Shown: positions 2,303 to 41,455 of the stretch, in pieces
Layout: the number at the start of each line of letters is the position of its first letter
Position numbering within the stretch: position 1 is the stretch's first letter
Assembly: GCA_934149365.1 (NCBI GenBank)
Contig: CAKPEI010000001.1
Location: 12,723-76,722 of the forward strand
Origin: an uncultured Clostridia bacterium
GTDB lineage: Bacteria; Bacillota; Clostridia; TANB77; CAG-465
Reading direction: 5' to 3'
Length of the DNA: 64,000 bases
Notes under the pieces: generated by a model
Told to the model about the DNA's origin: nothing
Seen by the model: only the letters and a program-made list of their open reading frames with translations
Databases searched by the model: none
Translations under genes and position numbers: made by a program

Positions 2303-2375
2303 AAATGAGCTAGATAGAGGTTTCTGCGCTCAAAAAACAGATGTATTGGATAATAGAAAGTTAGTTATACAGTAA

Positions 2376-2400: not shown

Positions 2401-2417
2401 AATGGAGGAAGGTATAT

Positions 2418-4313
2418 ATGAAAACGAAGGTAAAATTAAAAAATGGAATATCACTAATAGTACTAGTGATAACAATAATAGTAATGATAGTATTAGCAGG
2501 AGCAGTGATACTAGCATTAAGCAATAGTGGAATAATAGAAAAAGCAACAAGCTCGGCATTTAAGACGGATGTAAAAACAATAAAAGAAGAATATGAATAC
2601 AAAATGGCAGAGCTAAAGCTAAATGATGAGACATTTGACCAAGCGACATTAAATGCTTCAGATACAACATTAAGTTATAATACAAAAACAGAAGAAGGTG
2701 GAAACCTATACAGTATAGTGCCGACAGCAGAAAAGTATAAAGATGAGTTTGAAGTAAGAGATGGAGTGCTAAGATACAAAGGAGAAAATTACAAAAAGTT
2801 AAATTGGGCAGAAGAAGTAGGAATAACAACAAATAGATATGAAATAGTAGATGGAGTATTATTATCATCAAACGCAAACTTGCTACTAGTGGGAACAGAT
2901 GGTAAGATAAGAATACCAAGTAATGTAGTAAAGATAGGAGAGGGAGCATTTAGTAATGTAGACGGATTAAAAGAAGTAACAATACCTGGCAATGTAAAAG
3001 AAATAGGACAAAACGCATTTTCAAGTAACAAAACATTAGAAAAAGTTGTAATGGAAGATGGTGTTAAAACAATAGGTAAGAGTGCTTTTAATCATTGTGT
3101 TTCACTTAAAAGTGTAACAATGACAGATAGTGTTACTGAACTTGGTAGTTTATCTTTTGACTTTTGTTTTAAGCTTGAAAATATTATATTATCAAATAAT
3201 ATAACTAAAATAACTACTAATTTTGGATATTGTTATGAATTAAAGGAACTAAAATTGCCTAAAAATATAACTGAAATAAAAAGTTCTTTTAAGTATGCAA
3301 ATATTAATAAATTAACAATACCAAAGAGCTTATCAAGCATAGTAGATTGTTTTAGTGAAGTAAATGAAATAACAATAGAAAGTGGCAATAACTATTTTGA
3401 GGTTGATGATGGAATACTTTACACTAAGGGAAAAGGAGAATTAATATATATCACTAAATCTAAAAGAGATGAAACTTCGATAACAATACCTGAAAAGGTT
3501 ATTACCTTGAATGCTAATGCATTTTCAAATAGTAAGTTTGAAGTAATAAACTTACCATCAACACTTACTGAAATAACAGGATATTTTAGTTCTAAAAATT
3601 TAAAAGAAATAAATATTTCAGATAGTAATACAATATATAAAAGTAGTAATGGTTCGCTATATAATAAAAATATGACAGAAACAATAGCAATAATATCAGA
3701 TGAAAAATTGGTTAATGTACCAAATGGTGTTACAACAATAGGTTCAAATTCGATGATATTATGTCAAAATGCTGAGAAAATAGTTTTTCCCGAGAGTGTA
3801 ACTACAATATTAGGAAATGCTGTTGCAGCTAGTACTACAGAAATTGAATTGGGGTCAAAAGTAAGCAACATAAAAGAGCTTCCGTTTGGCGCAAATAATA
3901 TTGTAGAAAAAGTTACTATAAATGCTGGTAATCAAACATATTCAGCAGATAATAACTATATATACAAATTAAATTCATCAAAACAAAAAGAAAAAATAGT
4001 TTATGCAATAACTAAAGAAAAGGAACTAACTGTGCCAGATGGAATTGATGAAATATGTGATTATGCCTTTCATAACAAACAAATTACCAAAGTTATTTTA
4101 CCTAATACATTGAAGAAAATAGGAATAGCTAGTTTTTCAGCATCTCTTTTAGAAAATATAGAAATACCAAGTAGTGTTGACACTATAGGAAGTGATGCAT
4201 TTGCTACTTCTACGTTAAAAGAAATAAAAATAAATAAGAAAAAAGGAAGTATAAGTGGAGCGCCTTGGGGAGCTCCAATAGGGGAAAGAGCAATAACATG
4301 GACTCAAAATTAA
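2418..4313 (+). CDS. secreted/surface protein: non-canonical prepilin-like N-terminus plus BspA-type leucine-rich repeat domain (family A, copy 1)
   Basis: RBS GGAGG. N-terminus MKTKVKLKNG|ISLIVLVITIIVMIVLAGAVILALS. Repeated IP.NV..IG..AF......L..V motifs typical of BspA-like LRR. 631 aa. Confidence 0.8.
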   Translation: MKTKVKLKNGISLIVLVITIIVMIVLAGAVILALSNSGIIEKATSSAFKTDVKTIKEEYEYKMAELKLNDETFDQATLNASDTTLSYNTKTEEGGNLYSIVPTAEKYKDEFEVRDGVLRYKGENYKKLNWAEEVGITTNRYEIVDGVLLSSNANLLLVGTDGKIRIPSNVVKIGEGAFSNVDGLKEVTIPGNVKEIGQNAFSSNKTLEKVVMEDGVKTIGKSAFNHCVSLKSVTMTDSVTELGSLSFDFCFKLENIILSNNITKITTNFGYCYELKELKLPKNITEIKSSFKYANINKLTIPKSLSSIVDCFSEVNEITIESGNNYFEVDDGILYTKGKGELIYITKSKRDETSITIPEKVITLNANAFSNSKFEVINLPSTLTEITGYFSSKNLKEINISDSNTIYKSSNGSLYNKNMTETIAIISDEKLVNVPNGVTTIGSNSMILCQNAEKIVFPESVTTILGNAVAASTTEIELGSKVSNIKELPFGANNIVEKVTINAGNQTYSADNNYIYKLNSSKQKEKIVYAITKEKELTVPDGIDEICDYAFHNKQITKVILPNTLKKIGIASFSASLLENIEIPSSVDTIGSDAFATSTLKEIKINKKKGSISGAPWGAPIGERAITWTQN

Positions 4314-4323
4314 TTAAAAAACA

Positions 4324-4352
4324 GTTGACTAAAATAAAAATATATAGTAAGA
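4324..4352 (+). promoter_or_regulatory. sigma-A-like promoter TTGACT-17-TAAGAT (copy 2)
   Basis: Identical to the 2157-2185 promoter. Confidence 0.5.
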
Positions 4353-4390
4353 TAAATACATAAAAAAACATTACAAGAGGTGAAAATGAA

Positions 4391-4540
<150 letters not shown>

Positions 4541-4546
4541 AAAATA

Positions 4547-4570
4547 CATAGCTAGCTTTTTTGCGTGTTA
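4547..4570 (+). promoter_or_regulatory. conserved ATAGCTAGCTTTTTTGCGTGTTAA element (copy 2)
   Basis: See 2376-2400. Confidence 0.5.
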
Positions 4571-4583
4571 ATGGAGGAAAGTA

Positions 4584-6503
4584 ATGAAGGTAAAATTAAA
4601 AAAAGGAATATCACTAATAGTACTGGTGATAACAATAATAGTGATGATAGTATTAGCAGGAGCAGTGATACTAGCATTAAGTAATAGCGGAATAATAGAA
4701 AAGGCAACAAGTTCAGCATTTAAGACGGATGTAAAAACAATAAAAGAAGAATATGAATATAAAATGGCAGAGCTAAAGTTAAATAATGAAACATTTGACC
4801 AAACAACATTAAATGCGTCAGATACAATGCTAAGTTATAATACAAAAACAGAAGAAGGTGGAAACCTATACAGTATAGTGCCGACAGCAGAAAAGTATAA
4901 AGATGAGTTTGAAGTAAGAGATGGAGTACTAAGATATAAGGGAGAAAATTACAAAAAACTAAATTGGGCAGAAGAAGTAGGAATAACAACAAACAGGTAT
5001 GAAATAGTGGATGGAGTATTGTTATCATCAAACGCAAACTTACTACTAGTAGGAACAGACGGTAAGATAAGAATACCAAGTAATGTAGTAAAAATAGGAG
5101 AAGGAGCATTTAGTAATGTAGATGGATTAAAAGAAGTAACAATACCTGGTAATGTAAAAGAAATAGGGCAAAATGCATTTTCAAGTAACAAAACATTAGA
5201 AAAAGTTGTAATGGAAGAGGGTGTCACAACAATAGGATTAGGAGCTTTTTATAACTGTACTTTGTTGAAATCTGTAAGTATGACAGATAGTGTGGTTACA
5301 TTAAATGAACAATCATTTAATGGGTGTATCTCATTAAGTGATATAAAATTATCAAATAATATAACTGAAATACCGTATAATTTTTCTGGATGTTCTAGTT
5401 TAAATCAATTTAAATTACCGACTAGTGTTAAAAAAATATCAAATATATTATGGAATACTGCTGTAAAAGAAATTTATTTACCTAGTAGTTTGGAAACAAT
5501 AGGCGGAGGATGTTTTAGAGGGACTAGCCTTAGTAAGATAACAGTTGATAAAGATAATATTAATTTTGTGGTTGAGGATGGAATATTGTACGGTTCTGGT
5601 AAAACATCTATTATATATTTGACAGCAGATAAGAAAAAAGAAGAAAGTATTACAATTGCAGAAGGCGTAACAAAATTAGATGGAATAATTTTTGCAGAAA
5701 GTAGTATACAAAATATATCTTTACCGTCGACCTTGACAACAATAGAAAACTACTTTTCATCTGATAATATAAAAAGTATAACAGTAGCAGAAGGCAATAA
5801 GTATTTTGCTAGCAAGGATGGATCTTTGTATAACAAAGATATGACAAAAACAGTAGCAATAATATCAGACGAACAAAAAATTACTATACCAGAGGGAGTT
5901 ACCTCAATAGGTAGTTATTCACTATATTTATGTAAAAATGCTACTGAAGTAGTATTTCCTGAAAGTCTTAAGAGTATGGGGGCTTATTCAATAACACATG
6001 GTAATAAGTTAACTGCAGTAGAGAAAGTGTCTATTGGAGCTAGCGTTAATGATATAGCACATTTAGCTTTATATAATGGGTATAAGCTAAAAGAAGTTAA
6101 TATAAATTCTGCAAATAGAACATATAGTGCAGATGGCAATTTTTTATACAAATTAAATAGTAGTGGTGTTAAACAGGAAATAGTAGAGGCGATTGTTAAT
6201 GAATCAAATGTAACAATACCGGAGGGAATTAAAAAAATAGGAAAATATGCTTTTTATAACAATAAAATTGTAAACATAACATTACCTAGCACGTTAACTG
6301 AAATTAGTGATAGTGCATTTTCATCATGCTATTATTTAAATAATGTGCAAATACCAAGCGGTGTAGATACTATTGGTAGTAATGTTTTTTCAGCTTGTAG
6401 ATCTCTTAAGAGTGTAAAGATAAATAGGAAAAAAGGAAGTATAAGTGGATCTCCATGGGGAATACCAATAGGGGAAAGAGCAATAACATGGGCTGAAAAT
6501 TAA
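4584..6503 (+). CDS. secreted/surface protein: prepilin-like N-terminus plus BspA-type LRR domain (family A, copy 2; tandem paralog of 2418..4313)
   Basis: 639 aa. First ~210 codons nearly identical to copy 1. LRR region diverged. Last ~24 aa conserved (KKGSISG.PWG.PIGERAITW). Confidence 0.8.
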   Translation: MKVKLKKGISLIVLVITIIVMIVLAGAVILALSNSGIIEKATSSAFKTDVKTIKEEYEYKMAELKLNNETFDQTTLNASDTMLSYNTKTEEGGNLYSIVPTAEKYKDEFEVRDGVLRYKGENYKKLNWAEEVGITTNRYEIVDGVLLSSNANLLLVGTDGKIRIPSNVVKIGEGAFSNVDGLKEVTIPGNVKEIGQNAFSSNKTLEKVVMEEGVTTIGLGAFYNCTLLKSVSMTDSVVTLNEQSFNGCISLSDIKLSNNITEIPYNFSGCSSLNQFKLPTSVKKISNILWNTAVKEIYLPSSLETIGGGCFRGTSLSKITVDKDNINFVVEDGILYGSGKTSIIYLTADKKKEESITIAEGVTKLDGIIFAESSIQNISLPSTLTTIENYFSSDNIKSITVAEGNKYFASKDGSLYNKDMTKTVAIISDEQKITIPEGVTSIGSYSLYLCKNATEVVFPESLKSMGAYSITHGNKLTAVEKVSIGASVNDIAHLALYNGYKLKEVNINSANRTYSADGNFLYKLNSSGVKQEIVEAIVNESNVTIPEGIKKIGKYAFYNNKIVNITLPSTLTEISDSAFSSCYYLNNVQIPSGVDTIGSNVFSACRSLKSVKINRKKGSISGSPWGIPIGERAITWAEN

Positions 6504-26235: not shown

Positions 26236-27432
26236 ATGAGAACAAAAGTTAAACTAAAAGGCGGAATATCATTAATAGTATTAGTAATAACAATAATAGT
26301 AATGATAATACTAGCCGCAGCAATAATATTATCGCTATCAAACAGTGGAATAATAGGAAAGGCAAATAAAGCAAAGACAGATACAGACATATCAAATGCA
26401 AAAGACTTAGTGGCTATGGCTCATGCAGACTGGATGCTAGATGAGGCAAAGATAAAAGAGAACGATGATACAATAACATCATTTAGTAACTATGCAGAAA
26501 AGAAATTACAAGAAGCAGGATATAAAGTAGGAGCAGGAGAAGGAGCATATACAGTAACAGAAGATGGAGAAGTATATACAGGTCTAACAGAAACAGCAAG
26601 AGCAGGAATAACAGCAGGAATAAAAATAGGAGATGAAGTAAAGTATAATGCAGTACTAACAGCAAAAAGAACTACAACAGACGGAAGTGAACAAAGTTCA
26701 ACAGGAGCAGCAGATATTACGAAGAAACAAACAGTAAAAACAAATACAAGCTATACATGGAAATATATAGGATTAGGAGAAGATGGAAGTTTACTTATAG
26801 CGCCAGATATGACAGGGACAATAGGAGCAGACTATAAATTAATATTAGGATATAAAGGAGGTTATATAAATGGACCAAAAATGTTAAATACAATATGTGA
26901 TATTTTATATACAGTAGAGGGAAAAGGAAAAGCTCAAAGTATGAATATAGACATAGTAAACAAAATATTAGAATATAATGGACCAAAAGGAAGATACTAT
27001 GATGCAAGTAGTAATACAGTAGAAACAACAGAAGCAATGACAATAGCAGAATTGGAAACAAAATTTAATAGTAAATTAGCAAGAGATTATGTGCCAGAGG
27101 GGAAAGATTTAGGAGAATATAAATCAGACTATTATTACATAAACAAAACATACCATGCAAGCAGAATAACCAAAGATACAGTGAAACAAAATCTAGTATA
27201 TCAAGCAAATACATATTGGCTTGCTTCTCCGTGTGTCGATGCGAATTTGGACATCGGTTATGCGAGTTTCCATGTACGCTGCGTTAACTCTACTAGCGTG
27301 GACGCGACCAACATGTTCAATCCGTATGTCTCCGATAGTAGCTTTCCCTGCGCTGTCCGTCCGTATGTTTCTCTAACATCTAATGTCCAGAAAACAACAG
27401 AAAATGGAAAAACAGTATGGACATTAAGCTAG
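26236..27432 (+). CDS. secreted/surface protein: prepilin-like N-terminus plus C-terminal YWLASPCV domain with candidate variable region (family B, copy 1)
   Basis: RBS AAGGGGG. N-terminus MRTKVKLKGG|ISLIVLVITIIVMIILAAAIILSLS. 398 aa. Confidence 0.8.
   Translation: MRTKVKLKGGISLIVLVITIIVMIILAAAIILSLSNSGIIGKANKAKTDTDISNAKDLVAMAHADWMLDEAKIKENDDTITSFSNYAEKKLQEAGYKVGAGEGAYTVTEDGEVYTGLTETARAGITAGIKIGDEVKYNAVLTAKRTTTDGSEQSSTGAADITKKQTVKTNTSYTWKYIGLGEDGSLLIAPDMTGTIGADYKLILGYKGGYINGPKMLNTICDILYTVEGKGKAQSMNIDIVNKILEYNGPKGRYYDASSNTVETTEAMTIAELETKFNSKLARDYVPEGKDLGEYKSDYYYINKTYHASRITKDTVKQNLVYQANTYWLASPCVDANLDIGYASFHVRCVNSTSVDATNMFNPYVSDSSFPCAVRPYVSLTSNVQKTTENGKTVWTLS
27239..27372 (+). other. candidate DGR-type variable region (GC-rich, NNC-codon-rich 3' segment)
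   Basis: Composition shift (gcg, ccg, cgc, gac, gtc codons) in an otherwise AT-rich gene. Differences from paralogs fall at first/second codon positions. Confidence 0.45.
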
Positions 27433-27762: not shown

Positions 27763-27915
27763 AAAAGCAAAAATATAACTCAATTATAAATTTATAAATC
27801 ATAAGACTATCTTTTTACATATGTTACAACAATGTATATTTTTTGTAATTATTCTACAAAAAAGTATACATTGTTTTCTTTTTTTGATATAATGTATATG
27901 TAATAATGCGATGGA

Positions 27916-30132
27916 GTGATAAAGAAAATGTTTAAGGGTATATTTAAAAGAAGAAAGGTTGCATATGTAGGGCTCATGCTTGGCGCGTTTTGTGTGTTTG
28001 GTAAGTGTTATGCTGCAAGTTATGCGACTTCAACGATTTCAGATAGCTTCCCAGCAAGTTATCAATCATATATAAATAGATTAAAAAGTAGTCATCCTAA
28101 TTGGAATATTAAGGCTTTTTATACACATTTAGATTGGAATACAGTTCTTAATTCGGAGTCAAAAGGAACATATTCAAGAGTTCAAAATTCGGCATATGGT
28201 GATGCATGGAAAAGAACAGAAGCAGCAAATGATAGTTCATATAATGCAGCAGGTTTTGTACTTGCTTCAAGAGCTGCAGTAGCATATACATTGGACCCAA
28301 GGAACTTCTTAACAGATGAAGGAATATTTCAATTTAGGGTAATAGATAAAGATGTGGCTTCGGATACAGAAACTGCTGTAAAAGAAGTTGCACATAGTAC
28401 ACCAATGTACACAAATGATTATGCTAGTATTATAAAGAAAGTGGGAAATGATAAGAATATAGCTCCAACTTTTATAATATCAAGAATAAGACAAGAAACA
28501 GGTTGTGATACTGTAAATAACGGAAGTATAAATGGTAAAAACTCTAAATATCCTGGTTATTATAACTTCTTTAATATTGGAGCAAGAGATGGAAATGGAG
28601 CTGTACAAGCTGGTATAAATTTAGCACATACTAATGGATGGAATACACCAGAAAAAGCTATTGCAGGTGGAATGGACTGGCTAAACAAAAACTATGTTAA
28701 ATGGGGACAAAGTACAGTATATTTCCAAAAGTTTGATGTAGCAAACCCATATGGTAATGCAACAACGCTTCTTTCTATGCAGTATATGTCTAATATATCT
28801 GCACCAATGGGAGAGGCCAAAATTGCATATAAAGGAATTGAGAGGGCAGGTATATTAAATAACACATACACTTTCTATATTCCAATATATGATAATATGC
28901 CATCAATAGCTTCACCTAGTCCAACTATAGGGTACTATGAAAATGATAGCACAATGGTATATCTAGATGACCCAGATACAAATGATAGCTACGATACTTT
29001 TAAAATAAGGTCAACAGCGGACTCTTCTAGTTCTAGTAATGTAGTGTATACATTAAAAGAGTCTAGTGATATAAATAAAAAGACAGCAATGACAAGAATA
29101 AAAAAAGGCATTGATACTGGTTGGGACTATGTTGAGTTTGAAGTAAATGGTCAAAAGATAGAAGGCTATGTATGGAACTATTATGTATTTGAATATTCAT
29201 ATACTAAAGTAACAGCAATATCTTTAGATAGTGCAAACAAAACATTAAAAGTAGGCGATACTTTTAAACTTTCAGCTACAATAGAACCTTCAAATGCTAA
29301 ATTTAAGGATGTAACATGGAGTAGTTCAAATAATAACGTGTTAACAGTAGACAGTAATGGTAATGTTAAAGGAGTTGCAGCAGGTTCAGCTATTGTAACT
29401 GCTACAACAAAAGACCAACAAAAAACAGCTACATGCACAGTAACAGTTACTGATAAAGACCCAAGTATATCTTTAGATAAAACTAAATACAGTGTAGTGA
29501 GTGGAAAGTTAACACCTTTTAGTGTTGATATAGAATATACTGACGTGTCAGATTATGATGTGAAAATAGAGGATGAAAATATTGCTAAAATTCAAGATGG
29601 AAAAATATTAGGAGTTAAAGAAGGAACAACTAAATTAATTGTTACTTTAAAAGGAACTAATATAAAGGCAGAAGCAGAGATTAATGTAATTGAGATAAAA
29701 GAGGGAGATATAGTAATTGATAGTTCTTTAGATGTGAATAATGATGTTGTATCAAATATATCACCTGAAACAAAAGCACAAGATATAATTGGAAAAGTTC
29801 AATCTTCATACACAGTAGCATTAAAAAATAAATCAGGAGAAACATTAACAGGAGATGCTTGTGTTGGAACGGGAAGTAAAATTCAGATTTTAGATAATGC
29901 AGGTACGGTTATATATGAGTACACAGTTTTAATATATGGAGATGTAACTGGTGATGGTAAAATAACTTCAAAGGACTATATGGCAATTAAAAATCATATA
30001 ATGGGAACGGCTACAATTACAGGAATAGAAGCAAAAGCAGCAGACAGTTTTAGAGATAATAATATAACTTCAAAAGACTATATGATTATTAAAAATCATA
30101 TAATGGGAACATCTGTGATTAGTCAGAAATAA
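27916..30132 (+). CDS. secreted multidomain protein: GH73-like glucosaminidase (putative peptidoglycan hydrolase) domain, Big_2 Ig-like domains, C-terminal type I dockerin
   Basis: Signal peptide. RQETGCD...YNFFNIGA (GH73-like). Big_2 (VTWSSSNNNVLTVDSNGNVKGVAAGSAIVTATT). Dockerin repeats GDVTGDGKITSKDYMAIKNHIMG twice. 738 aa. Confidence 0.7.
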   Translation: MIKKMFKGIFKRRKVAYVGLMLGAFCVFGKCYAASYATSTISDSFPASYQSYINRLKSSHPNWNIKAFYTHLDWNTVLNSESKGTYSRVQNSAYGDAWKRTEAANDSSYNAAGFVLASRAAVAYTLDPRNFLTDEGIFQFRVIDKDVASDTETAVKEVAHSTPMYTNDYASIIKKVGNDKNIAPTFIISRIRQETGCDTVNNGSINGKNSKYPGYYNFFNIGARDGNGAVQAGINLAHTNGWNTPEKAIAGGMDWLNKNYVKWGQSTVYFQKFDVANPYGNATTLLSMQYMSNISAPMGEAKIAYKGIERAGILNNTYTFYIPIYDNMPSIASPSPTIGYYENDSTMVYLDDPDTNDSYDTFKIRSTADSSSSSNVVYTLKESSDINKKTAMTRIKKGIDTGWDYVEFEVNGQKIEGYVWNYYVFEYSYTKVTAISLDSANKTLKVGDTFKLSATIEPSNAKFKDVTWSSSNNNVLTVDSNGNVKGVAAGSAIVTATTKDQQKTATCTVTVTDKDPSISLDKTKYSVVSGKLTPFSVDIEYTDVSDYDVKIEDENIAKIQDGKILGVKEGTTKLIVTLKGTNIKAEAEINVIEIKEGDIVIDSSLDVNNDVVSNISPETKAQDIIGKVQSSYTVALKNKSGETLTGDACVGTGSKIQILDNAGTVIYEYTVLIYGDVTGDGKITSKDYMAIKNHIMGTATITGIEAKAADSFRDNNITSKDYMIIKNHIMGTSVISQK

Positions 30133-30151
30133 ATAATAGGAGGAATATATA

Positions 30152-31501
30152 ATGATTAAAAACAAAAGAATAAAATATTTATCAATATTTATGTTGATGT
30201 TTGTGTTTGCTATAACTAACTTTGTGTATGCAGCAGGAAGCTTTAGTGTAAGTGCTAACAAAACATCATTAAATCCTGGAAATACAGCAACTATAACAAT
30301 AAAGACAAATAATTGTGCAGGTAAGTTTAGTGTTTCATCATCAAATACTTCAGTTGCAACTGTATCTACAGGTTCAACTTGGGTAGATGGAACTGCTACA
30401 ATAACAGTAACAGCTAAAGCAAATGGAAGTGCTAATATAACGGTGACACCAGTTGATGTGTCTGATACAGACTTAAATGATGTTACTGGTAGTAAATCAG
30501 TTACTATAAAAGTAACAACACCTTCTAGTAATACAAATACTAACAAGCCAAGTAGTGGTAGCAATTCTAATAGTAATACAAACAAGAATAACAATAGCAA
30601 TAAAAATAATACAAGTTCAAAATCTTCAAATGCTAATCTTAAAAATATGATACTTAGTGTTGAAGGCCTTTCACCTGCATTTGCTAAAAATATCACATCG
30701 TATTCTCTAAAAGTTGGGGAAAATGTGGATACAATAAAGGTAAATGCTTCAGTTGAACATAATAGAGCTTCTTATTCAGTATCAGGTAATACTAATTTAA
30801 AAGTTGGAGAAAATATAATTACAGTAAAAGTAACAGCAGAAGATGGTACTGTAAAAACATATAAAATAACTGTACTTAAATCAGATGATCCAGTAAAATC
30901 TGATGCAACACTTTCTTCTGTTATAATTGAAGATGTAAATTTAGGGCAGGCATTTGACCCTAATGTTACTGAGTACAATGCAGGAGATATAACTGTTAAA
31001 TCAAGTAAGCTTAATATTTTAGCTTATCCAAATAATGATAATGCTAAAGTTGAAATATTAGGTAATGAAAATTTGGGCGTTGGTGAAGGAAAAATAACAA
31101 TAAGGGTTACATCTGAAAATGGAAAAGTAACTAAAGATTATGTAATAGCTTTTAACAAACTTTATGCAGAAACTAATGCAAACAATGTGGATATATATGG
31201 TGATTCTTTAAGAGCAAGAGAAAATAACAAACCATCATTTTGGTCAAAACTAAAAGATTGGTATGAAGCAAACTTAAAAGAACACATGACAGTTATTGTG
31301 CTATATGTATTTGTTTGGGTAGAATTTTTACAAGTAGTATATTTATATGAAAGATTAAGAAAATATGAAGATTTAGATAAAATAACTGTTGGTAAAAGAA
31401 TAAATAGAGAAGATAAAAAAGAAAAAGCTCCAAAGGAAGAAAAACCAAGAAGAGCAAAACAAAATCCTGTATTCCCTGAAGAAACAGAAAATAAAGAATA
31501 G
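30152..31501 (+). CDS. membrane-anchored partner protein: N-terminal Ig/cohesin-like domain, Ser/Asn/Thr linker, two cadherin-like beta-sandwich domains, C-terminal transmembrane anchor and charged tail
   Basis: Signal peptide. L..LS...G.LSP.F......Y...V cadherin-like repeats. C-terminal transmembrane segment IVLYVFVWVEFLQVVYLY then a KE-rich tail. 449 aa. Confidence 0.65.
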   Translation: MIKNKRIKYLSIFMLMFVFAITNFVYAAGSFSVSANKTSLNPGNTATITIKTNNCAGKFSVSSSNTSVATVSTGSTWVDGTATITVTAKANGSANITVTPVDVSDTDLNDVTGSKSVTIKVTTPSSNTNTNKPSSGSNSNSNTNKNNNSNKNNTSSKSSNANLKNMILSVEGLSPAFAKNITSYSLKVGENVDTIKVNASVEHNRASYSVSGNTNLKVGENIITVKVTAEDGTVKTYKITVLKSDDPVKSDATLSSVIIEDVNLGQAFDPNVTEYNAGDITVKSSKLNILAYPNNDNAKVEILGNENLGVGEGKITIRVTSENGKVTKDYVIAFNKLYAETNANNVDIYGDSLRARENNKPSFWSKLKDWYEANLKEHMTVIVLYVFVWVEFLQVVYLYERLRKYEDLDKITVGKRINREDKKEKAPKEEKPRRAKQNPVFPEETENKE

Positions 31502-31512
31502 TGTAAATAATT

Positions 31513-31550
31513 GGGTATAAATGCAAAATATGTGTTTATACCTATTTTAT
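31513..31550 (+). terminator. rho-independent terminator
   Basis: Hairpin ggtataaa-tgcaaaatatgtg-tttatacc then T-run. Confidence 0.5.
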
Positions 31551-31680
31551 ATATTTTTTCTATATAAAAATATATCTAAATTTAAGTAAATGAATTAATA
31601 TATTTAAAGTTGTAAATAATAATATGTATAAATATTTTTATTTATAGCTTTATTTTTTTTACTTAGGAAAGGAGTTATTA

Positions 31681-33888
31681 ATGAATGAAAAAAGGGTAAT
31701 TAGTTTAAATAAAATGATAGCTTTAATATGTATGCTATGTACTTTTTTTATAGGAAGTAAAGTTTTTGCTGCAACTAAGAGTGTAGGAATAGATAGTTTT
31801 CCAAGTAGTTATCAAATATATTTAAAACAAATTCAAAAGCTCCATCCTAATTGGACATATACAGCACTAAATACGGGGATTGATTGGAATACGGTCATAA
31901 AAAACGAAGGACCTAGTGTAGATTTAAAAAGAAGTGCTATAGGAATTTCATTTGCTGATGTGTGGAAATGGAAAAATAGCAATGGTGCATATAATTTAAT
32001 AGAGCCAGGTTGGGTAACAGCATCTGAGCTTGCTGTGGCATATAGTATGGACCCAAGAAAATACATAAATGAAATGCAAATATTTCAGTTTGAAACTTTA
32101 AATTATGACTCTAGTGTCCAAAATCAAACAGGTGTAGAAAAGATATTTTATGGTACTTTAATGTACCAAAAAAATATCTCATATATAGATACAAATGGGA
32201 AAACTCAAACAATAAATAAAACGTATAGTAAAGTGGTAATGGAAGCTGCTGCAAAATATGGAGTAAGTCCATATCATTTAGCGTCTAGAATAAAACAAGA
32301 AACAGGTTGTGATATACAAAATAACACATCTATAAAAGGAAATGTGTCTGGCTATGTTGGACTATATAATTATTTTAATATAGGAGCAACGGGAGGAAGT
32401 AATCCTGCTATATCAGGACTTGCATATGCAAGAAGTGTAGGATGGACCACTCCGGAACTTGCAATAAATGGTGGTGCAGAGTTCTTATCTCAGAAATATA
32501 TAAATAAAGGGCAATATACTACATATTTGCAAAAATTTAATGTAAATGATAATAGTTCATATAGCTTATACACACATCAATATATGCAAAACATATTAGC
32601 TCCATCTTCTGAAGCTGTAAATACTCATAGTGCCTATTCTAAGATGGGTTTACTTGACATACCTTTTAATTTTGTAATACCAGTGTATGACAATATGCCA
32701 AACTTACCTGTAGATATATATACAGAAAATCCATCTGACTATGTGAAAGATAGCACAAAAGTGTATTGTACAAGTAATTTAAATATAAGGTCGGGAGCCG
32801 GAACTGGTAACAGTGCATTACTCACAGCACCTAAAGGCACAGTTATGACTAGAATAGCAAGAGGTGTTCAAGCAGGAGAAAGATGGGATAAAGTAAGGTT
32901 AGATACAGGACTTGAAGGTTATGTATTCCAGAGCTATATTAAAGAATGTTCATATACTAAGGTAACAGGTGTACAAATTAGCAGTGATGAAATTGATGTT
33001 GAAGTGGGAAAAGAGACTAGTCTAAAAGCAGAAGTATTACCAAGTAATGCTACATACAAAGATGTTACATGGAGTTCAAGTGATAGTAACATAGTAAGTG
33101 TAAGTCAAGACGGAAAAGTAACTGGAGTAAAAGAAGGTATGGCATATGTAACTGTTAAGAGTGATGACCAACTAAAAGAAGCAAGATGTGTTGTAAATGT
33201 AGTAAAGAAAAAAGAACCAAAACTAGAACTTGATAAAGATACATATATTGTTTTAAAAGGAAAGTCTACTAAACTTAATATAACTACATTAAATGTTGAT
33301 AACCCAGAGTATGAAATAGCTGTTCAAAATGAAGAAATTGCTAAAGTAGAAGAAAATAAAATATATGGAATAGAAGAAGGAGAGACAAATATAACAATAT
33401 CACTTGTAGGTACAACTCTAAAGGTTCAAGCTAAAGTTAAAGTAGTTGATATAAAAGAAGGAGAAATAAAAATTAATGAAAGTATAAAAGTAGAAGAAGA
33501 TATTATTAGTAAAATAGAACCAGAAACTACAATCTCAAGCATATTAGATAAAATTGAAACCTCATATGATGTGAAAGTAAAAGAGAAATCAGGAAAAAAT
33601 TTAGGTGAAAATGATATTGTTGGAACTGGAAGTAAAGTTCAGATTTTAGATAGTGCAGGTGCGGTAATATATGAGTATACAGTTTTAATATATGGAGATG
33701 TGACTGGTGACGGAAAAATAACGTCAAAGGATTATATGGCAATTAAAAATCATATAATGGAAACAAGCAGGTTAAATAAAATAGAACAAAAAGCAGCAGA
33801 TAGTTTTAAAGATGGCAATATAACCTCAAAGGATTATATGATAATAAAAAATTACATAATGGGTGTAAGTAAAATAAATCAAGAGTAA
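31681..33888 (+). CDS. second GH73-like/Big_2/dockerin secreted protein (paralog of 27916..30132)
   Basis: 735 aa. Same domain order. Dockerin GDVTGDGKITSKDYMAIKNHIME...DGNITSKDYMIIKNYIMG. Confidence 0.7.
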   Translation: MNEKRVISLNKMIALICMLCTFFIGSKVFAATKSVGIDSFPSSYQIYLKQIQKLHPNWTYTALNTGIDWNTVIKNEGPSVDLKRSAIGISFADVWKWKNSNGAYNLIEPGWVTASELAVAYSMDPRKYINEMQIFQFETLNYDSSVQNQTGVEKIFYGTLMYQKNISYIDTNGKTQTINKTYSKVVMEAAAKYGVSPYHLASRIKQETGCDIQNNTSIKGNVSGYVGLYNYFNIGATGGSNPAISGLAYARSVGWTTPELAINGGAEFLSQKYINKGQYTTYLQKFNVNDNSSYSLYTHQYMQNILAPSSEAVNTHSAYSKMGLLDIPFNFVIPVYDNMPNLPVDIYTENPSDYVKDSTKVYCTSNLNIRSGAGTGNSALLTAPKGTVMTRIARGVQAGERWDKVRLDTGLEGYVFQSYIKECSYTKVTGVQISSDEIDVEVGKETSLKAEVLPSNATYKDVTWSSSDSNIVSVSQDGKVTGVKEGMAYVTVKSDDQLKEARCVVNVVKKKEPKLELDKDTYIVLKGKSTKLNITTLNVDNPEYEIAVQNEEIAKVEENKIYGIEEGETNITISLVGTTLKVQAKVKVVDIKEGEIKINESIKVEEDIISKIEPETTISSILDKIETSYDVKVKEKSGKNLGENDIVGTGSKVQILDSAGAVIYEYTVLIYGDVTGDGKITSKDYMAIKNHIMETSRLNKIEQKAADSFKDGNITSKDYMIIKNYIMGVSKINQE

Positions 33889-33902
33889 AGGAGAAAAAAG
33901 AA

Positions 33903-35126
33903 ATGAAAATTAACAAATTAAATTATTTAAGAATATTTGCTATTCTTCTAGTATTTTTTGTAGTAAGCAAGGTGCAAGCTGCGGGAACATTTAGTGTAAG
34001 CACAAACAAAACATCTTTAAAGCCAGGAGAAACTGCAACAGTTACAATAAAAACTAATAACTGTGCTGGAAAATTCGGAATAAGTTCATCTAACACTGGA
34101 GTTTTAACAGTATCTACAGGTTCAACTTGGGTAGATGGAACAGTAACAGTTACAGTAACTGCAAAAGCTAATGGAACAGCTAGTATATCAGTAAACCCAA
34201 TTGATGTATCAGATAATGATTTAAATGATGTAAAGGGAAGTAAATCAGTTAGTATAAAAGTAGCAACTCCACAAACTACTACCACTCCAAGTACGTCTGG
34301 CACTACAGGAAGTAATAAAACTACGGGAACAACTAAACCTTCTACTAGTAAAACTAGTACTACTACAAAATCAGTAAGCAATAATGCGTATTTAAAAGAA
34401 TTTCGAGTTGATAGACCTGGCATTTCACCTAGTTTTAACAAAAATACATTTAACTATTCTATTACAGTTGATGAAAGTGTAGATAAACTAAATGTAACTG
34501 CAGTTCCAGAAAACAGTAAGGCAAGTGTTAGTATAACCGGAAACACTGGTTTAAAAACAGGTGATAATGTTATAACGGTAAAGGTTGTAGCAGAAGATAA
34601 AAAAACAAGTAAAGTGTATAAAATATTTGTAACAAAAGCAGATGATGAAGCAAAATCTAATGCGTATTTACAAAACCTAATAGTATCAAATATGACACTA
34701 ACACCAGAATTTTCTAAAGAAATTTTTGAATATAGTTTAGGAGACATTTCATATGATGTGGAAAAACTTGAAATATCTGCATTTCCAGTTAATGAAAAAG
34801 CTAAAGTTGAAATAACTGGAAACGATAAACTTGTGGTTAATGAAAATACTATAAAAATAACAGTAACATCTGAAAACTCTAAAGTTCAAAAGGTATATAC
34901 ATTAAAGGTAAACAAAAAAGAGGGTGTAAGTAAAGAAGAAAACAAGCAATTGGAGAGTAAGGAAGAGGAAAGTATGCTTGTTGATAAGTGGTCCAATATT
35001 AAAATAGCATTGAAGGAAAAAGCCCCTATACTTTGGTTATATGCTTTTGTTTGGGTAGAATTTTTACAAGTAGTATATCTATATGAAAAGCTTAAGAAAA
35101 AAGATGATGTAACTCATATAAAATAA
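33903..35126 (+). CDS. second membrane-anchored cohesin-like/cadherin-like partner protein (paralog of 30152..31501)
   Basis: 407 aa. Same architecture and the same C-terminal transmembrane motif FVWVEFLQVVYLYEKL. Confidence 0.65.
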   Translation: MKINKLNYLRIFAILLVFFVVSKVQAAGTFSVSTNKTSLKPGETATVTIKTNNCAGKFGISSSNTGVLTVSTGSTWVDGTVTVTVTAKANGTASISVNPIDVSDNDLNDVKGSKSVSIKVATPQTTTTPSTSGTTGSNKTTGTTKPSTSKTSTTTKSVSNNAYLKEFRVDRPGISPSFNKNTFNYSITVDESVDKLNVTAVPENSKASVSITGNTGLKTGDNVITVKVVAEDKKTSKVYKIFVTKADDEAKSNAYLQNLIVSNMTLTPEFSKEIFEYSLGDISYDVEKLEISAFPVNEKAKVEITGNDKLVVNENTIKITVTSENSKVQKVYTLKVNKKEGVSKEENKQLESKEEESMLVDKWSNIKIALKEKAPILWLYAFVWVEFLQVVYLYEKLKKKDDVTHIK

Positions 35127-35129
35127 ATA

Positions 35130-35154
35130 AAAGCTCCTTATTTAGGAGCTTTCG
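35130..35154. terminator. bidirectional terminator
   Basis: Perfect hairpin aaagctcc-ttattta-ggagcttt. Confidence 0.6.
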
Positions 35155-37675: not shown

Positions 37676-37699
37676 TGTATAGCTAGCTTTTTTGCATTT
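37676..37699 (+). promoter_or_regulatory. conserved TGTATAGCTAGCTTTTTTGCATTTAA element (copy 4)
   Basis: See 2376-2400. Confidence 0.5.
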
Positions 37700-37772
37700 A
37701 AAGCAAGGTATAATCATTGCATTAAGCAATGTTAATATACAAATTAAGTTTTATATGAAATGGGAGGTAAAA

Positions 37773-38942
37773 ATGATGAAAAACTTAAGAAAAAACAAAA
37801 GCGGAATATCACTGATAGTATTAGTAATAACAATAATAGTAATGATAATACTAGCAGCCGCAATAATACTATCACTATCAAATAGTGGAATAATATCAAA
37901 AGCAAACAAAGCCAAAACAGATAGTGATACAGCAAATTTAAAAGAGTATGTAAATACACTAAGAGCAGAATGGGAGTTAATGACAGCAGAAAAACAGGCA
38001 GAAGAAGGTTCATTTGTAGATTATGCAAATTCAAAGTTAGCTGAGAAAGGTTATAAAGTAATGCTATCAGATGACGGAGTACTAATGAATGAAGCAGCGA
38101 CAGCTGCAGTAAAAGCAGGAATAAAAGTAGGAGATACAGTAACAGGGTATACATTGGATGTGGCTACATATACAACAGACGGAAGTGAGAATACATGTGA
38201 TGCAAAAAAACAAGAAGAAACAGATCCACAACCACAAGAAGTAACAGCAAATACGCAGCTAAGATGGAAATACTTAGGAGTAAATGCAAATGGAGAACTA
38301 GAAATAATGGCAGATTTAGGAACAACAGAAGTTGCAGCAAATACAAAAGTAACATTAGGCGGAAAAGGTGGTTATTTAAAAGGACCAGATATGTTAAATA
38401 CAATATGTGAAAAATTATATTCAAAAGATGGAGTAGGAACAGCAAGAAATATGAATATAGATGATGTAAATAATATATTGGGTTATATAGGAGAAAAGGG
38501 ATCATATTACTATATTGATGACGAGTACACACCAACTAAAGAAGCAAAAACAATAGCTACGTTAGAAAGCGAATTAGGAATGACATTAGATGGTAGAACA
38601 ACACCAGATGGAAAAGACTTAGGAATGTACTATTTAGATTATTACAATATAAGTAGAACAGATGATGTAAAAAAGATGAAAAAACCAGGGAATGTGGATT
38701 TAGTATACAATGCTAAAAATGAATACTGGCTTGCTTCTCCGTGTGTCTCTGCAATGTTCTTCGGCAACATGGCGACTTTCAGTGTTCGCTATGTTAACTC
38801 TGCTGCTGTGGGCGGGAACGGCGTGTTTAGTTCGTATGACTACTTTGCCGGCCATACTTATGCGGTCCGCCCTGTAGTAACTTTAAATTCTAATGTTAAA
38901 TTAACACCAAATGCAGATAAAACAGAGTGGGGAATAAGTTAG
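37773..38942 (+). CDS. secreted/surface protein: prepilin-like N-terminus plus YWLASPCV C-terminal domain with candidate variable region (family B, copy 2)
   Basis: ATG 37773 after RBS GGGAGG. The ORF-track start 37692 runs through the RBS. N-terminus MMKNLRKNKSG|ISLIVLVITIIVMIILAAAIILSLS. Confidence 0.8.
   Translation: MMKNLRKNKSGISLIVLVITIIVMIILAAAIILSLSNSGIISKANKAKTDSDTANLKEYVNTLRAEWELMTAEKQAEEGSFVDYANSKLAEKGYKVMLSDDGVLMNEAATAAVKAGIKVGDTVTGYTLDVATYTTDGSENTCDAKKQEETDPQPQEVTANTQLRWKYLGVNANGELEIMADLGTTEVAANTKVTLGGKGGYLKGPDMLNTICEKLYSKDGVGTARNMNIDDVNNILGYIGEKGSYYYIDDEYTPTKEAKTIATLESELGMTLDGRTTPDGKDLGMYYLDYYNISRTDDVKKMKKPGNVDLVYNAKNEYWLASPCVSAMFFGNMATFSVRYVNSAAVGGNGVFSSYDYFAGHTYAVRPVVTLNSNVKLTPNADKTEWGIS
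38748..38880 (+). other. candidate DGR-type variable region
   Basis: 16 of ~41 codons are NNC. GC-rich patch. Confidence 0.45.
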
Positions 38943-39121
38943 GTGTAAAAGTTTGAATGCAGATGTTTAGTTGACATTTACAATATATATTTAGTCATGT
39001 AGGCAAATTATCTTGTCTATGTGGCTATTTATTTTTGCTTTTTTTATTTTGTATCACCTGATATCTTGCGTTTGGATAGGCTATGTGATAATATATTGAT
39101 ATATTAAATGAGGTGGAATTT

Positions 39122-39838
39122 ATGATAGAAGTAAAAAATTATACAAAGATATATAATGGTGATAAAAAGGCTGTAGATAATATTTCTTTTACCGCTGAAA
39201 CTGGTGAGATATTTGCATTTATAGGGCATAATGGAGCAGGTAAAACTACAACTATAAAGTCTATAGTTGGAATACTAGACTTTGAAGAGGGAGATATTTA
39301 TATAAATTCAAAGTCTATAAAAGAAAAGCCTATTGAATGTAAAAAGGAGATAGCATATATACCTGATAACCCAGATTTATATGAAAATTTAACAGGTATA
39401 GCTTTTATTAATTTTATATGTGATATATATGATGTTGCAAAAGAGAGAAGAGAAGAAAGAATAAAAAAATATGCAGATAAGTTTGAAATAACTGCAAATT
39501 TAGGTGATACTATTGAGTCATATTCTCATGGTATGAAACAAAAGCTTGCTATAATTGCAGCTTTAGTTCATGAGCCAAAGGTTCTTGTTTTAGATGAGCC
39601 TTTTGTAGGTTTGGACCCAAAAGCTGTTTTTGATTTAAAAGAAATTATGAGGGAAATGTGTGATAATGGGGCTACTATATTTTTCTCTACACATATTTTA
39701 GAGGTAGCAGAAAAACTTTGTGATAAGGTTGCTATTATTAAAAGAGGTAAGCTTGTAAAGGTTGGAAAAATGGAAGAAGTAAAAGGTGATACTTCTCTTG
39801 AAAATGTATTCTTAGAATTAGATGGAAAGGGTGAATAA
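39122..39838 (+). CDS. ABC transporter ATP-binding protein
   Basis: Walker A GHNGAGKTT, signature SHGMKQKL, Walker B VLVLDEP. ATG 39122 after RBS GAGGTGG. Confidence 0.85.
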   Translation: MIEVKNYTKIYNGDKKAVDNISFTAETGEIFAFIGHNGAGKTTTIKSIVGILDFEEGDIYINSKSIKEKPIECKKEIAYIPDNPDLYENLTGIAFINFICDIYDVAKERREERIKKYADKFEITANLGDTIESYSHGMKQKLAIIAALVHEPKVLVLDEPFVGLDPKAVFDLKEIMREMCDNGATIFFSTHILEVAEKLCDKVAIIKRGKLVKVGKMEEVKGDTSLENVFLELDGKGE

Positions 39839-39841
39839 CTT

Positions 39842-41455
39842 ATGGTAAAAAACAAATTATTTACACTTTTAAAAGCATCTATGTCTGGAAATATGAATAT
39901 ATTTAAGGTTGGAAGAAAGAAAAAGAAAAGTGTAACTGGAAAAATAAATAGAGTATTAACTTTAACATTTTTTACATTATTATTAATGAGTTTATTTGGT
40001 ATGTATGCCAAAATTATTATAGAGCCATTAAAAAACTTTAACATGGCTCATATGGCAATAACTTTGTTTGGACTTGTAACTACTATAATGATATTTATTC
40101 AAGGAGCTTACAGGTCGCAGGGAATTTTATTTGATGCAAAAGATAGTAATATGCTTTTTGCTATGCCCATTAAAAAGAGTACTATTTTTGCAGCAAGGCT
40201 TATTAAATTAATAACTTTCCAATATATGTGGAATTTTATTATAATGCTGCCAACTGTAGTTGTTTATGCTTTTAGTATAAAGCCGGAATTTACTTTTTAT
40301 ATTACAGCTTTTGTAATGATAATAACACTTCCAATTATACCTACCATTGTAGCTTCTATTTTTGGATATATAATTCAAAGTATATCTTCAAAATTTAAAA
40401 TGAAGAAATTTGTTCAAATGATAGGAACAATTATATTTACAATTTTATTAATGTACATTAGTTTTAATACAAATGATTACTTGGAAAATATAGTGGCTAA
40501 AGCTCAGAGTTTAAACGAAATAATAACTAATATTTATTACCCTATGGGAATATATGATACATGTTTGATTACTTTTAGTGTATCAAAATTACTAGGCATA
40601 TTGCTAGCAAATATATCATTAACAGTGTTATTTGTATTAGTATTTAGCCATTCATATTATAGAGTGGTTTCAAGACTTTCTGAAAAGCATTCTAGTGCTA
40701 ATTATCAAATAAAAAAGTTAAAATCAAATTCTGCTTTTTGGGCGTTAACTAAAAAGGAATTAAAGAAATATTTTAGTACTCCAGTGTACGTATTTAACAC
40801 TATAGTAGGACCTGTAATGCTTTTAATTGCAAGTATATATGCGCTAATATCAAAAGAAAAACTATTAAGTAGCGTAGCTACTGAACTTGGTGGACTTGAT
40901 ATAACTAATTTTGTAGGTAAGTTTCATATAATATTTATGGTGTTTGCAATAGGTGTTGCTACAACAACAGCATGTTCAATATCTATAGAAGGTAAAACAT
41001 TTTGGCTTACAAAAAGTTTACCAGTAAGTGAAAAGAAAATATTCTTAGCCAAGATTATGGTTAATTTATTTATAACTATACCAGCTACAATAATGTCTAC
41101 AATAGCTTTTTCATATGTGTTTAAACTTCCAGTTATAGACATTATATATTGTCTAGCTTTTGCAGTTATTATTCCTTTTATGGTGTCTATGCTAGGACTT
41201 ATAATAAACTTAAAATATCCAAAAATGAATGCTGTCTCAGATACAGCTGTTGTAAAACAAAGTGCTAGTACAATGATAACAATGTGCTCAGCATTTGCAT
41301 TAGCAGGAATACCAATTGCTATTTGTGGAATATTAAAAATACAGAACTTAGATATGTATATAGGAATAATTTTAGGTGTATTTACATGTTTTACAATAAT
41401 TTTGTGGAAAATATTAACAACTTATGGTATAAAATTGTTTAGAGATATTAATTAA
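39842..41455 (+). CDS. ABC-2 type transporter permease (multi-transmembrane)
   Basis: 537 aa highly hydrophobic. Translationally coupled to the ATPase gene. Confidence 0.65.
   Translation: MVKNKLFTLLKASMSGNMNIFKVGRKKKKSVTGKINRVLTLTFFTLLLMSLFGMYAKIIIEPLKNFNMAHMAITLFGLVTTIMIFIQGAYRSQGILFDAKDSNMLFAMPIKKSTIFAARLIKLITFQYMWNFIIMLPTVVVYAFSIKPEFTFYITAFVMIITLPIIPTIVASIFGYIIQSISSKFKMKKFVQMIGTIIFTILLMYISFNTNDYLENIVAKAQSLNEIITNIYYPMGIYDTCLITFSVSKLLGILLANISLTVLFVLVFSHSYYRVVSRLSEKHSSANYQIKKLKSNSAFWALTKKELKKYFSTPVYVFNTIVGPVMLLIASIYALISKEKLLSSVATELGGLDITNFVGKFHIIFMVFAIGVATTTACSISIEGKTFWLTKSLPVSEKKIFLAKIMVNLFITIPATIMSTIAFSYVFKLPVIDIIYCLAFAVIIPFMVSMLGLIINLKYPKMNAVSDTAVVKQSASTMITMCSAFALAGIPIAICGILKIQNLDMYIGIILGVFTCFTIILWKILTTYGIKLFRDIN

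Follow-up and report, generated by a model that had tools for sequence, protein, structure and literature searches.

A candidate dockerin-receptor tether for GH73-like peptidoglycan hydrolases encoded by two tandem gene pairs in an uncultured Clostridia bacterium

Organization of the two enzyme/anchor gene pairs

We analyzed a 64,000-nucleotide stretch of DNA (hereafter the window) from an uncultured Clostridia bacterium (assembly GCA_934149365.1, contig CAKPEI010000001.1, positions 12,723 to 76,722 of the forward strand), which carries two tandem gene pairs at window positions 27916-35126. Each pair consists of a gene for a secreted enzyme resembling glycoside hydrolase family 73 (GH73) and ending in a dockerin (A1, A2), followed by a gene for a membrane-anchored partner (B1, B2); we describe here computational evidence that the partner could be the receptor of the dockerin and thereby a tether for the enzyme. 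The four plus-strand open reading frames (ORFs) lie where an initial annotation of this DNA, made from the sequence alone, had placed them (Table 1). That annotation put each partner gene 15-20 nt behind its enzyme gene; the close spacing holds but the exact range does not, the spacers being 19 nt (A1-B1) and 14 nt (A2-B2). Each spacer contains a Shine-Dalgarno sequence and a terminator-like hairpin follows each pair, which makes two bicistronic operons the best interpretation of the locus. The listed GTG start codon of A1 at 27916 overlaps a GGAG sequence, so the ATG at 27928 is more likely to be the true start. An extended -10 box (TGATATAAT) is present upstream of A1 at 27885-27893; the promoter scan of the region performed at chance level (42 found versus 47 expected).

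Table 1. Features of the tandem enzyme/anchor locus (window coordinates)
Feature	Position	Strand	Residues	Description
A1	27916..30132	+	738 aa	Secreted GH73-like glucosaminidase; SH3-like, Big_2, and Ig-like modules; C-terminal type I dockerin
A1 GH73 catalytic core	28264..28887	+	~117-324	YYNFFNIGA motif
A1 catalytic Glu	28495-28497	+	E194	RQETG
A1 Big_2 Ig-like domain	29209..29442	+	432-509	Pfam
A1 dockerin	29935..30102	+	674-729	Type I, type alpha
B1	30152..31501	+	449 aa	Type I membrane anchor; AGGAGG ribosome-binding site upstream
B1 N-domain	30233..30517	+	28-122	Type alpha; Big_2-family Ig-like beta-sandwich, proposed dockerin receptor
B1 linker	30518..30625	+	123-158	Ser/Thr/Asn-rich
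B1 cadherin-like domains	30626..31162	+	~159-337	Two Cadherin-like (PF12733) domains; Pfam
B1 transmembrane helix	31289..31354	+	~380-401	Conserved polar motif W-V-E-F-L-Q-V-V-Y-L-Y
B1 cytoplasmic tail	31355..31498	+		Charged; ends in RRxKQNPVFPEE (B1-type orthologs only)
Hairpin after operon 1	31512..31544	+		Terminator-like
A2	31681..33888	+	735 aa	Paralogous GH73-like enzyme; SH3_3, Big_2, dockerin
A2 catalytic Glu	32299-32301	+	E207	
A2 dockerin	33691..33858	+	671-726	Type I, type alpha
B2	33903..35126	+	407 aa	Paralogous membrane anchor; short cytoplasmic tail
B2 N-domain	33981..34265	+	27-121	Type alpha; ~80% identical to B1 N-domain
B2 transmembrane helix	35028..35093	+	~376-397	Motif WVEFLQVVYLY
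Hairpin after operon 2	35130..35152	+		Terminator-like; bidirectional, common to convergent amidohydrolase gene

A1 and A2 resemble GH73 glucosaminidases of the SagB/Atl/AtlE type

Signal peptides had been ascribed to all four proteins, and N-terminal hydrophobic signal sequences are present in A1, B1, A2, and B2. The glucosaminidase-like domain proposed for the large proteins was corroborated by the NCBIfam SagB model, which matches A1 (E = 9e-16, aligned residues ~117-324) and A2 (E = 5e-13), and by PDB sequence matches to the GH73 enzymes SagB (6u0o/6fxp, E = 7e-15), Atl (6fxo, 7e-11), AtlE (4pi7, 8e-9), and Acp (5wqw, 6e-5). The NCBIfam scores are far below the 425-bit equivalog cut-off and thus denote family-level similarity, not SagB orthology; the Pfam Glucosaminidase model (PF01832) gave no match in either enzyme at E ≤ 0.1. 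The presence of the GH73 catalytic glutamate had been set beforehand as a test, and the alignment places E194 of A1 and E207 of A2 (R/KQETG) opposite E155 of SagB (LLETG), the catalytic glutamate of that enzyme (bioRxiv 10.1101/2020.05.21.109470). The motifs YYNF(F/Y)xxGA and GWxTPExAIxGG are common to A1 and the solved GH73 enzymes. With this catalytic-domain similarity and the conserved glutamate, A1 and A2 belong with GH73 and are predicted to cut the N-acetylglucosamine-N-acetylmuramic acid bond of peptidoglycan. Pfam also recovered the Big_2 domains initially assigned to the large proteins (A1, E = 2.5e-25; A2, E = 3.4e-18) and an SH3_3 domain in A2.

Both enzymes end in a type I dockerin; these are the only two dockerins within the window. 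The Dockerin_1 profile (PF00404) scored 48.4 bits for A1 and 54.3 bits for A2 against a cut-off of 22.9, with alignment over profile positions 1-56/57. Repeat 1 of the A1 dockerin (DVTGDGKITSKDYMAIKNHIM) has S685/K686 and repeat 2 (DSFRDNNITSKDYMIIKNHIM) has S719/K720 at positions 10/11. The Ca2+ loop of repeat 1 (DVTGDGKITSKD) is canonical. In all dockerins of the type that we call alpha (see below), repeat 2 (DSFRDNNITSKD) carries Phe or Tyr at loop position 3, and its Ca2+ site may therefore be weakened. Of the type I dockerin with two calcium loops described initially, the dockerin itself is thus secured by a full-length profile match, whereas the second loop is not fully canonical. Searching a database with the 99-aa dockerin region retrieved only 9 short fragments, which give no view of the range of alpha-dockerin cargo. 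Just upstream of the dockerin, 28 codons (29833-29916, A1 residues 640-667) gave a synonymous divergence (dS) of 0.19 and a nonsynonymous divergence (dN) of 0.23 relative to A2, compared to dS values of 0.6-1.6 elsewhere; the sample is small, and the low dS may reflect a short gene-conversion tract or nucleotide-level constraint.

B1 and B2 are type I membrane proteins with a cadherin-like stalk

The partners share a layout of signal peptide, ~95-aa N-terminal domain (N-domain), Ser/Thr/Asn linker, two cadherin-like domains, transmembrane helix, and charged tail; from the linker onward this is the architecture originally described, and Pfam and hydropathy analyses bear it out. The Cadherin-like profile (PF12733) scored 62.3 bits for B1 (E = 6e-17) and 63.2 bits for B2 (E = 3e-17) versus a threshold of 24.2, with two stretches in each protein. 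A single C-terminal hydrophobic segment (19-residue Kyte-Doolittle mean of 2.09 in B1 and 1.64 in B2) precedes a K/R/E-rich tail. The unusual tail-anchored topology suggested earlier does not apply in the strict sense, B1 and B2 being type I membrane proteins with a cleavable-looking signal peptide. Sortase anchoring was rejected, as no LPXTG-like motif precedes the hydrophobic segment and the 12-48-aa tail is conserved; a lipoprotein anchor was likewise rejected, as B1 and B2 contain no lipobox. The transmembrane motif W-[IVL]-E-F-[LIV]-Q-[IV]-[VA]-Y-L-Y is found in 50 of 120 homologs. A cytoplasmic motif, RRxK(E/Q)NP[IV]FP[DE]E, is present in 28 proteins within the B1-type set P0001-P0029 and absent from B2-type anchors. 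As a matter of speculation, the polar motif in the membrane and the motif in the cytoplasm suggest oligomerization, control from inside the cell, or an intramembrane or cytoplasmic partner.

The N-domain of the partners is Big_2-like

The N-domains had been described as Ig/cohesin-like; the Ig-like part of that description stands and the cohesin part does not. The B1 N-domain passes the Pfam threshold for Big_2 (PF02368; 26.6 bits versus 22.8), the B2 N-domain has no Big_2 match in Pfam, and four further members of the N-domain family (P0126, P0139, P0169, P0217) score 20.6-25.4 bits. The profile search against cohesin models that had been proposed as a check was negative: Pfam gave no PF00963 match in B1 or B2 at E ≤ 0.1, and a local cohesin hidden Markov model (HMM) found no cohesin-like ORF within the window. 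A profile of 14 N-domains searched against PDB sequences retrieved SbsC Ig domains (E = 4e-4) and no cohesin. An AlphaFold2 model of residues 27-125 (predicted local distance difference test score of 97) has eight strands, and the domain does not show the ~140-aa nine-stranded jelly-roll fold of cohesins; Foldseek returned nothing at E < 1e-3 with this model. When the alpha N-domain family was aligned with the cohesin-type partners described below, hhalign gave an end-to-end but weak alignment (60% probability), which is compatible with a very remote relationship between N-domain and cohesin but does not show one.

A phmmer search with the N-domain among 1.84 billion representatives yielded 552 relatives (about 550 clusters at 50% identity). 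In nearly all of the matches listed, the N-domain occupies residues ~25-125, mostly in proteins of 400-550 aa, and cadherin-like domains were found in six of seven sampled relatives; a few long matches are genuine Big_2 repeat proteins. Within the window the family is represented by the B1 and B2 N-domains only.

Dockerin and N-domain types vary in step among related loci

We compared the two pairs of the window with those of L001, L002, L004/5, L006, L008, L009, L034-L038, L014, L017, and L024. The dockerin enzyme adjoins the partner in every related locus examined, with partner identities down to 35%; the gene directly upstream of the partner gene encodes a GH73-like enzyme that carries Big_2/SH3 modules and a dockerin, and such pairs occur singly or as a tandem double pair. 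The closest relatives of the locus proteins come from metagenome-assembled genomes (MAGs) of uncultured Clostridia. The tandem-pair loci have a common chromosomal context, in which radical-SAM and PGA_cap genes precede the pairs and genes for an amidohydrolase and PGM follow them. When single proteins were used to scan genome and metagenome contigs, most matches were distant cadherin-like proteins. The second anchor gene of L036 (6952-8209) is interrupted and reads as two overlapping ORFs of 286 and 140 aa, reflecting either a frameshift/pseudogene or an assembly error. In L002 (MAG GCA_028692955.1), three tandem 594-aa paralogs that have no Pfam match (30-5523) lie directly upstream of the single enzyme/anchor pair.

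Among orthologs with 77-89% identical cadherin domains, the N-domain is ~80%, ~37%, or undetectably similar to that of B1, and the dockerin of the neighboring enzyme switches in step with the N-domain type. By reading the sequences we distinguished at least six matched interface types (alpha, beta, gamma, delta, epsilon, and zeta). The alpha type combines the dockerin motif ITSKDYMxIKNHIM with the N-domain motif GSFSVS...NCAGKF, the beta type YIFANDYVLIRNHIMSDNG with TISG...GDFTGRVNL, and the gamma type INSGDLLRLVKHLN with ISATKT...NAAAWNL. Positions 10/11, the canonical specificity positions of dockerins, differ by type (SK, AN/AV, SG, SM, PA, AS) and are identical in both repeats of a dockerin. 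Tandem loci provide a within-genome control: L034 is beta/beta in its first and alpha/alpha in its second pair, L035 has epsilon/epsilon and alpha/alpha pairs, and the two pairs are orthogonal by interface type in L004, L008, L009, L034, L035, and L037. Both pairs of the window are of the alpha type, and either enzyme could therefore sit on either anchor.

Across 20 enzyme/partner pairs, GH73 distances correlate with cadherin distances (r = 0.91) and dockerin distances with N-domain distances (r = 0.89), whereas the cross-correlations range from 0.20 to 0.27. Given GH73 and cadherin, dockerin and N-domain have a partial Mantel correlation of 0.886 (p ≤ 2e-4); the partial correlation of dockerin with cadherin, given GH73, is 0.035. 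The boundaries of the type blocks coincide with domain boundaries in every type.

This co-variation could also arise as a linkage artifact. The 3' end of the enzyme gene encodes the dockerin and the 5' end of the partner gene the N-domain, so the two adjoin in the DNA; modules ~100 nt apart could recombine as a block, a single recombination could swap both, and co-variation alone is therefore no proof of contact. The dockerin would then bind another target (a cohesin elsewhere, a wall polymer, or a surface protein), while the anchor would have a separate role as an adhesin, sensor, or spacer. The partner signal peptides do not discriminate between interface type and orthology, since they are 20-38% identical in all comparisons. 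We regard the linkage explanation as unlikely. The coincidence of block and domain boundaries speaks against it, as does the lack of any other dockerin or cohesin-like ORF in the window, and the two lines of evidence that follow oppose it further.

Dockerin and N-domain are conserved on either side of a saturated segment

The whole pair was indeed duplicated, as first proposed, the A1/A2 identity being 42% and the B1/B2 identity 50%, in place of the ~45-55% estimated by eye. In 30-residue windows, the dockerins are 73-97% and the partner N-domains 73-83% identical, and most of the rest is ~20-45% identical. Nei-Gojobori estimates between the paralogs gave dS and dN of 0.82 and 0.12 for the dockerin and of 0.82 and 0.15 for the N-domain. 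The partner signal peptide, which lies between these modules, gave a dS of 0.61 and a dN of 0.56; the other values were 1.31 and 0.60 (GH73 domain), 0.92-1.16 and 0.49-0.55 (cadherin-like domains), and 0.90 and 0.24 (transmembrane helix), the other domains spanning dN values of 0.5-0.9. Recent gene conversion was rejected as the cause of the conserved modules on two grounds, the dS of ~0.8 in each of them and the divergence of the intervening signal peptide. The segment formed by the intergenic region and the signal peptide has reached saturation (20-38% identity, dN 0.56), while the flanking modules stand at 73-97% with a dN/dS of ~0.15; this saturation persists even in comparisons in which the two modules remain 76-82% identical. 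Because a saturated segment intervenes between conserved modules, the constraint acts on each module and not on a block, which indicates that dockerin and N-domain are each kept by separate purifying selection and argues against linkage as the source of their co-variation.

True cohesins occupy the equivalent position in relatives

In the more distant operons of L014, L017, and L024 (Eubacteriales and Acutalibacteraceae MAGs), the N-terminal domains of the partners match Pfam Cohesin with 23.5, 24.4, and 24.8 bits versus a gathering cut-off of 24.1, and two of these matches span nearly the full length. The adjoining enzymes combine a GH73-like domain (33-35% identity) with SH3_3 and Dockerin_1 domains, and the gene order is that of the window. 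PDB sequence matches of the L014 N-terminal domain are weak and are to cellulosomal cohesins only. Two partners from the close clade, P0073 and P0091, also have cohesin-type N-domains (local HMM E = 3e-12 and 5.5e-7; hhalign 97% and 94%), with no Pfam cohesin match in either, and P0091 adjoins a GH73 enzyme with yet another dockerin type. Dockerins with 'DLL' (gamma, L014, L024, L038) pair with cohesin-type or gamma receptors, and those with 'DY[MV]xIKNHIM' (alpha, beta, epsilon, zeta, L010) pair with Big_2-like receptors. That homologous operons have a true cohesin in the place of the N-domain again disfavors the linkage explanation. L023 (320-7289) shows a further variant of dockerin cargo plus anchor, in which the gene for a 1750-aa dockerin protein containing cadherin-like domains precedes one for a cadherin-like protein; the local cohesin HMM recognizes the N-terminus of the latter (E = 3e-7).

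In L010 (uncultured Bacilli MAG CAJTLA010000044.1, 5299-9520) an anchor and a dockerin-bearing M6 (immune inhibitor A-type) peptidase are encoded in reversed gene order. The anchor has a beta-like N-domain, one cadherin-like domain, and a transmembrane helix, and its N-domain lies ~4 kb from the dockerin. This arrangement is weakly consistent with a dockerin-receptor role, and the M6 peptidase cargo means that the anchor system is not restricted to GH73 cargo.

A dockerin-receptor tether as the proposed function

On balance we favor, with moderate confidence, the interpretation that the locus encodes a dedicated, polymorphic dockerin-receptor tether that holds peptidoglycan hydrolases on a membrane stalk, with the N-domain probably acting as the receptor. 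The domain architecture, catalytic glutamate, conserved adjacency, module co-variation, selective constraint, and presence of a cohesin at the equivalent position in relatives support it computationally; from these we infer physical binding, its Ca2+ dependence, the enzyme substrate, and the physiological role. The dedicated cohesin-dockerin tether envisaged initially is thus likely as a tether, given adjacency and co-variation, but the label cohesin-like does not fit a Big_2-like receptor. In the proposed mechanism, the enzymes would be exported by Sec and the C-terminal type I dockerin would plug, in a presumably Ca2+-dependent manner, into the Big_2-like tip of the type I anchor. The linker and the two cadherin-like domains would form a stalk that holds the docking site off the membrane, and the SH3-like and Ig-like modules of the enzyme may add reach or wall binding. 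The SagB/Atl-type domain would then cut glycan strands of the producer's own wall. Docking would stop the hydrolase from diffusing away and limit where the wall is cut, and a hydrolase kept on its own surface with restricted cutting suits an autolysin or wall-remodeling role.

Several observations weigh against this interpretation, beyond the adjacency of the two modules in the DNA. The N-domain is Big_2-like, the partners have no PF00963 signal, and our literature search turned up no earlier case of a bacterial type I dockerin that binds Big_2. The search for cohesins covered the 64-kb window, and a canonical cohesin may be encoded elsewhere in the genome. The L010 N-domain is closest to the beta type (41-47% versus 20-35%); the L010 dockerin resembles the zeta, beta, and alpha types to about the same degree, so the match is clear only on the N-domain side. 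In the second Ca2+ loop of A1 (DSFRDNN), Phe occupies loop position 3.

The partner might instead be a regulator or immunity factor, i.e., a latch, inhibitor, or self-protection factor from which the enzyme is released or activated by a signal passing through the polar transmembrane helix and the NP[IV]FP tail. FtsEX and SpdC-type membrane partners control hydrolases and offer a loose analogy. The constraint on the transmembrane helix (dN 0.24) with its W-x-E-F-x-Q motif, the tail motif of the 28 B1-type orthologs, and the control of SagB, the closest solved relative, by a membrane partner would all accord with such a role. The co-varying contact, however, involves the dockerin instead of the catalytic domain, the tail motif is missing from B2-type anchors, and no signalling domain is present. 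We hold this alternative to be distinctly improbable as a separate explanation; it needs the same docking step and therefore refines the tether interpretation more than it competes with it.

Still less credible is an interbacterial weapon, in which stalk-displayed GH73 enzymes would lyse neighboring cells and the interface polymorphism would be strain-specific; we attach very little weight to it. Matched polymorphic interface types do recall polymorphic toxin systems, and BspA-type surface proteins are encoded nearby, but the polymorphism resides in the tether and not in the catalytic domain, and the locus shows no immunity gene, no secretion system, and no hallmark of a mobile element. Moreover, the pairs are syntenic among housekeeping genes in the tandem-pair relatives, and the closest solved relatives of the enzymes are housekeeping autolysins.

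Comparison with known tethering systems

Our literature search for dockerins associated with peptidoglycan hydrolases, cadherin-like anchors, or membrane-anchored cohesin proteins found no functional study. A single dockerin/cohesin of Ruminococcus bicirculans is reported to be associated with a GH73 enzyme (noted in PMC4611034). By that account, the window resembles R. bicirculans, and likewise the L014/L017/L024 pairs, in that the gene of a GH73-type enzyme ending in a type I dockerin adjoins a presumed receptor gene; with the latter three it also shares gene order, cadherin-like domains, and a C-terminal transmembrane anchor. In contrast to these non-cellulosomal cohesin-dockerin pairs, the putative receptor in the window is a ~95-aa Big_2-family Ig domain that lacks a PF00963 signal, and the dockerin is of the distinct 'DYMxIKNHIM' type. 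In Clostridium perfringens NagJ/NanJ, ~135-aa cohesins and a FIVAR-dockerin (PDB 2w1n, 2vo8) link secreted enzymes with each other and do not serve as membrane anchors.

Cellulosome anchoring scaffoldins attach through S-layer homology (SLH) domains (SdbA and OlpB of Clostridium thermocellum, with type II cohesins) or through sortase (ScaE of Ruminococcus flavefaciens), and specificity in cellulosomes is set at dockerin positions 10/11, among others, such that orthogonal types coexist in one cell. The combination of a dockerin-bearing component and a cell-bound receptor, putative here, is common to both systems. Unlike in scaffoldins, the cargo of the window is a peptidoglycan hydrolase and not a plant-polysaccharide enzyme, each anchor has one receptor and no array, attachment is by a type I transmembrane helix and not by SLH or sortase, and neither in sequence nor in its best fold match does the putative receptor qualify as a cohesin. 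Among the hallmarks of cohesin-dockerin anchoring, the window has a dockerin on the cargo, a cell-bound transmembrane anchor, and a putative specific pairing that co-variation supports; the cohesin is lacking in the window and found in L014/L017/L024 and P0073/P0091.

In the SagB-SpdC complex of Staphylococcus aureus, a membrane protein positions a GH73 glucosaminidase (bioRxiv 10.1101/2020.05.21.109470; PDB 6u0o). SagB is the closest solved relative of the A1/A2 catalytic domain, the catalytic glutamate is kept, and a membrane partner is present in both cases. SagB has its own N-terminal transmembrane helix and binds the polytopic, CAAX-protease-like SpdC through transmembrane and catalytic-domain contacts. 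A1 and A2, unlike SagB, have only an N-terminal signal sequence, are secreted, and are putatively tethered through the C-terminal dockerin to a single-pass stalk, which has no CAAX-protease-like domain and is no SpdC homolog. The locus is thus not of the SagB-SpdC type, and the resemblance is functional only.

Dockerins are common in non-cellulolytic bacteria, often with no recognizable cohesin, and to our knowledge their binding targets are largely unknown. A Big_2 receptor, if real, would offer an answer for many such genomes. The locus supplies a concrete candidate, a small Ig-like module that co-varies with a dockerin and stands in place of the true cohesin of homologous operons. More tentatively, and somewhat short of an even chance in our estimation, a Big_2-family Ig domain may be the physical receptor of bacterial type I dockerins in a new and widespread class with several orthogonal types and the roughly 550 clusters noted above, nearly always capping a cadherin-like single-pass stalk that tethers peptidoglycan hydrolases and, in some lineages, proteases. 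Confirmation would widen the set of dockerin receptors, provide naturally orthogonal plug/socket pairs for protein assembly, and reveal a previously undescribed Gram-positive means of leashing potentially lethal wall hydrolases to the membrane.

Genomic neighborhood

The region has a GC content of ~30%, and the neighbors of the locus are the housekeeping genes for ComEC, AlaRS, PBP2, PGM, and PGA_cap. Both operons are flanked by a pair of paralogs that are 47% identical (26236-27432, 398 aa; 37692-38942, 416 aa) and share an identical 30-residue N-terminal hydrophobic segment (GISLIVLVITIIVMIILAAAIILSLSNSGII), which is pilin-like but lacks the usual Glu5; neither belongs to a Pfam family. In L035, a 368-aa gene that has no Pfam match occupies the position equivalent to that of the upstream paralog. 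Genes for an ABC ATPase and a 12TM_1 (PF09847) membrane protein lie a few kb downstream of the pairs in the window (39113-41455), in L002 (10488-12813), and in L006 (10367-12668); they thus recur in both single-pair loci, whereas in L004 the interval from the amidohydrolase to the PGM gene lacks them. The BspA-type leucine-rich-repeat (LRR_5) surface proteins are encoded in tandem at 2418-4313 and 4584-6503 (E = 1e-66 and 7e-78).

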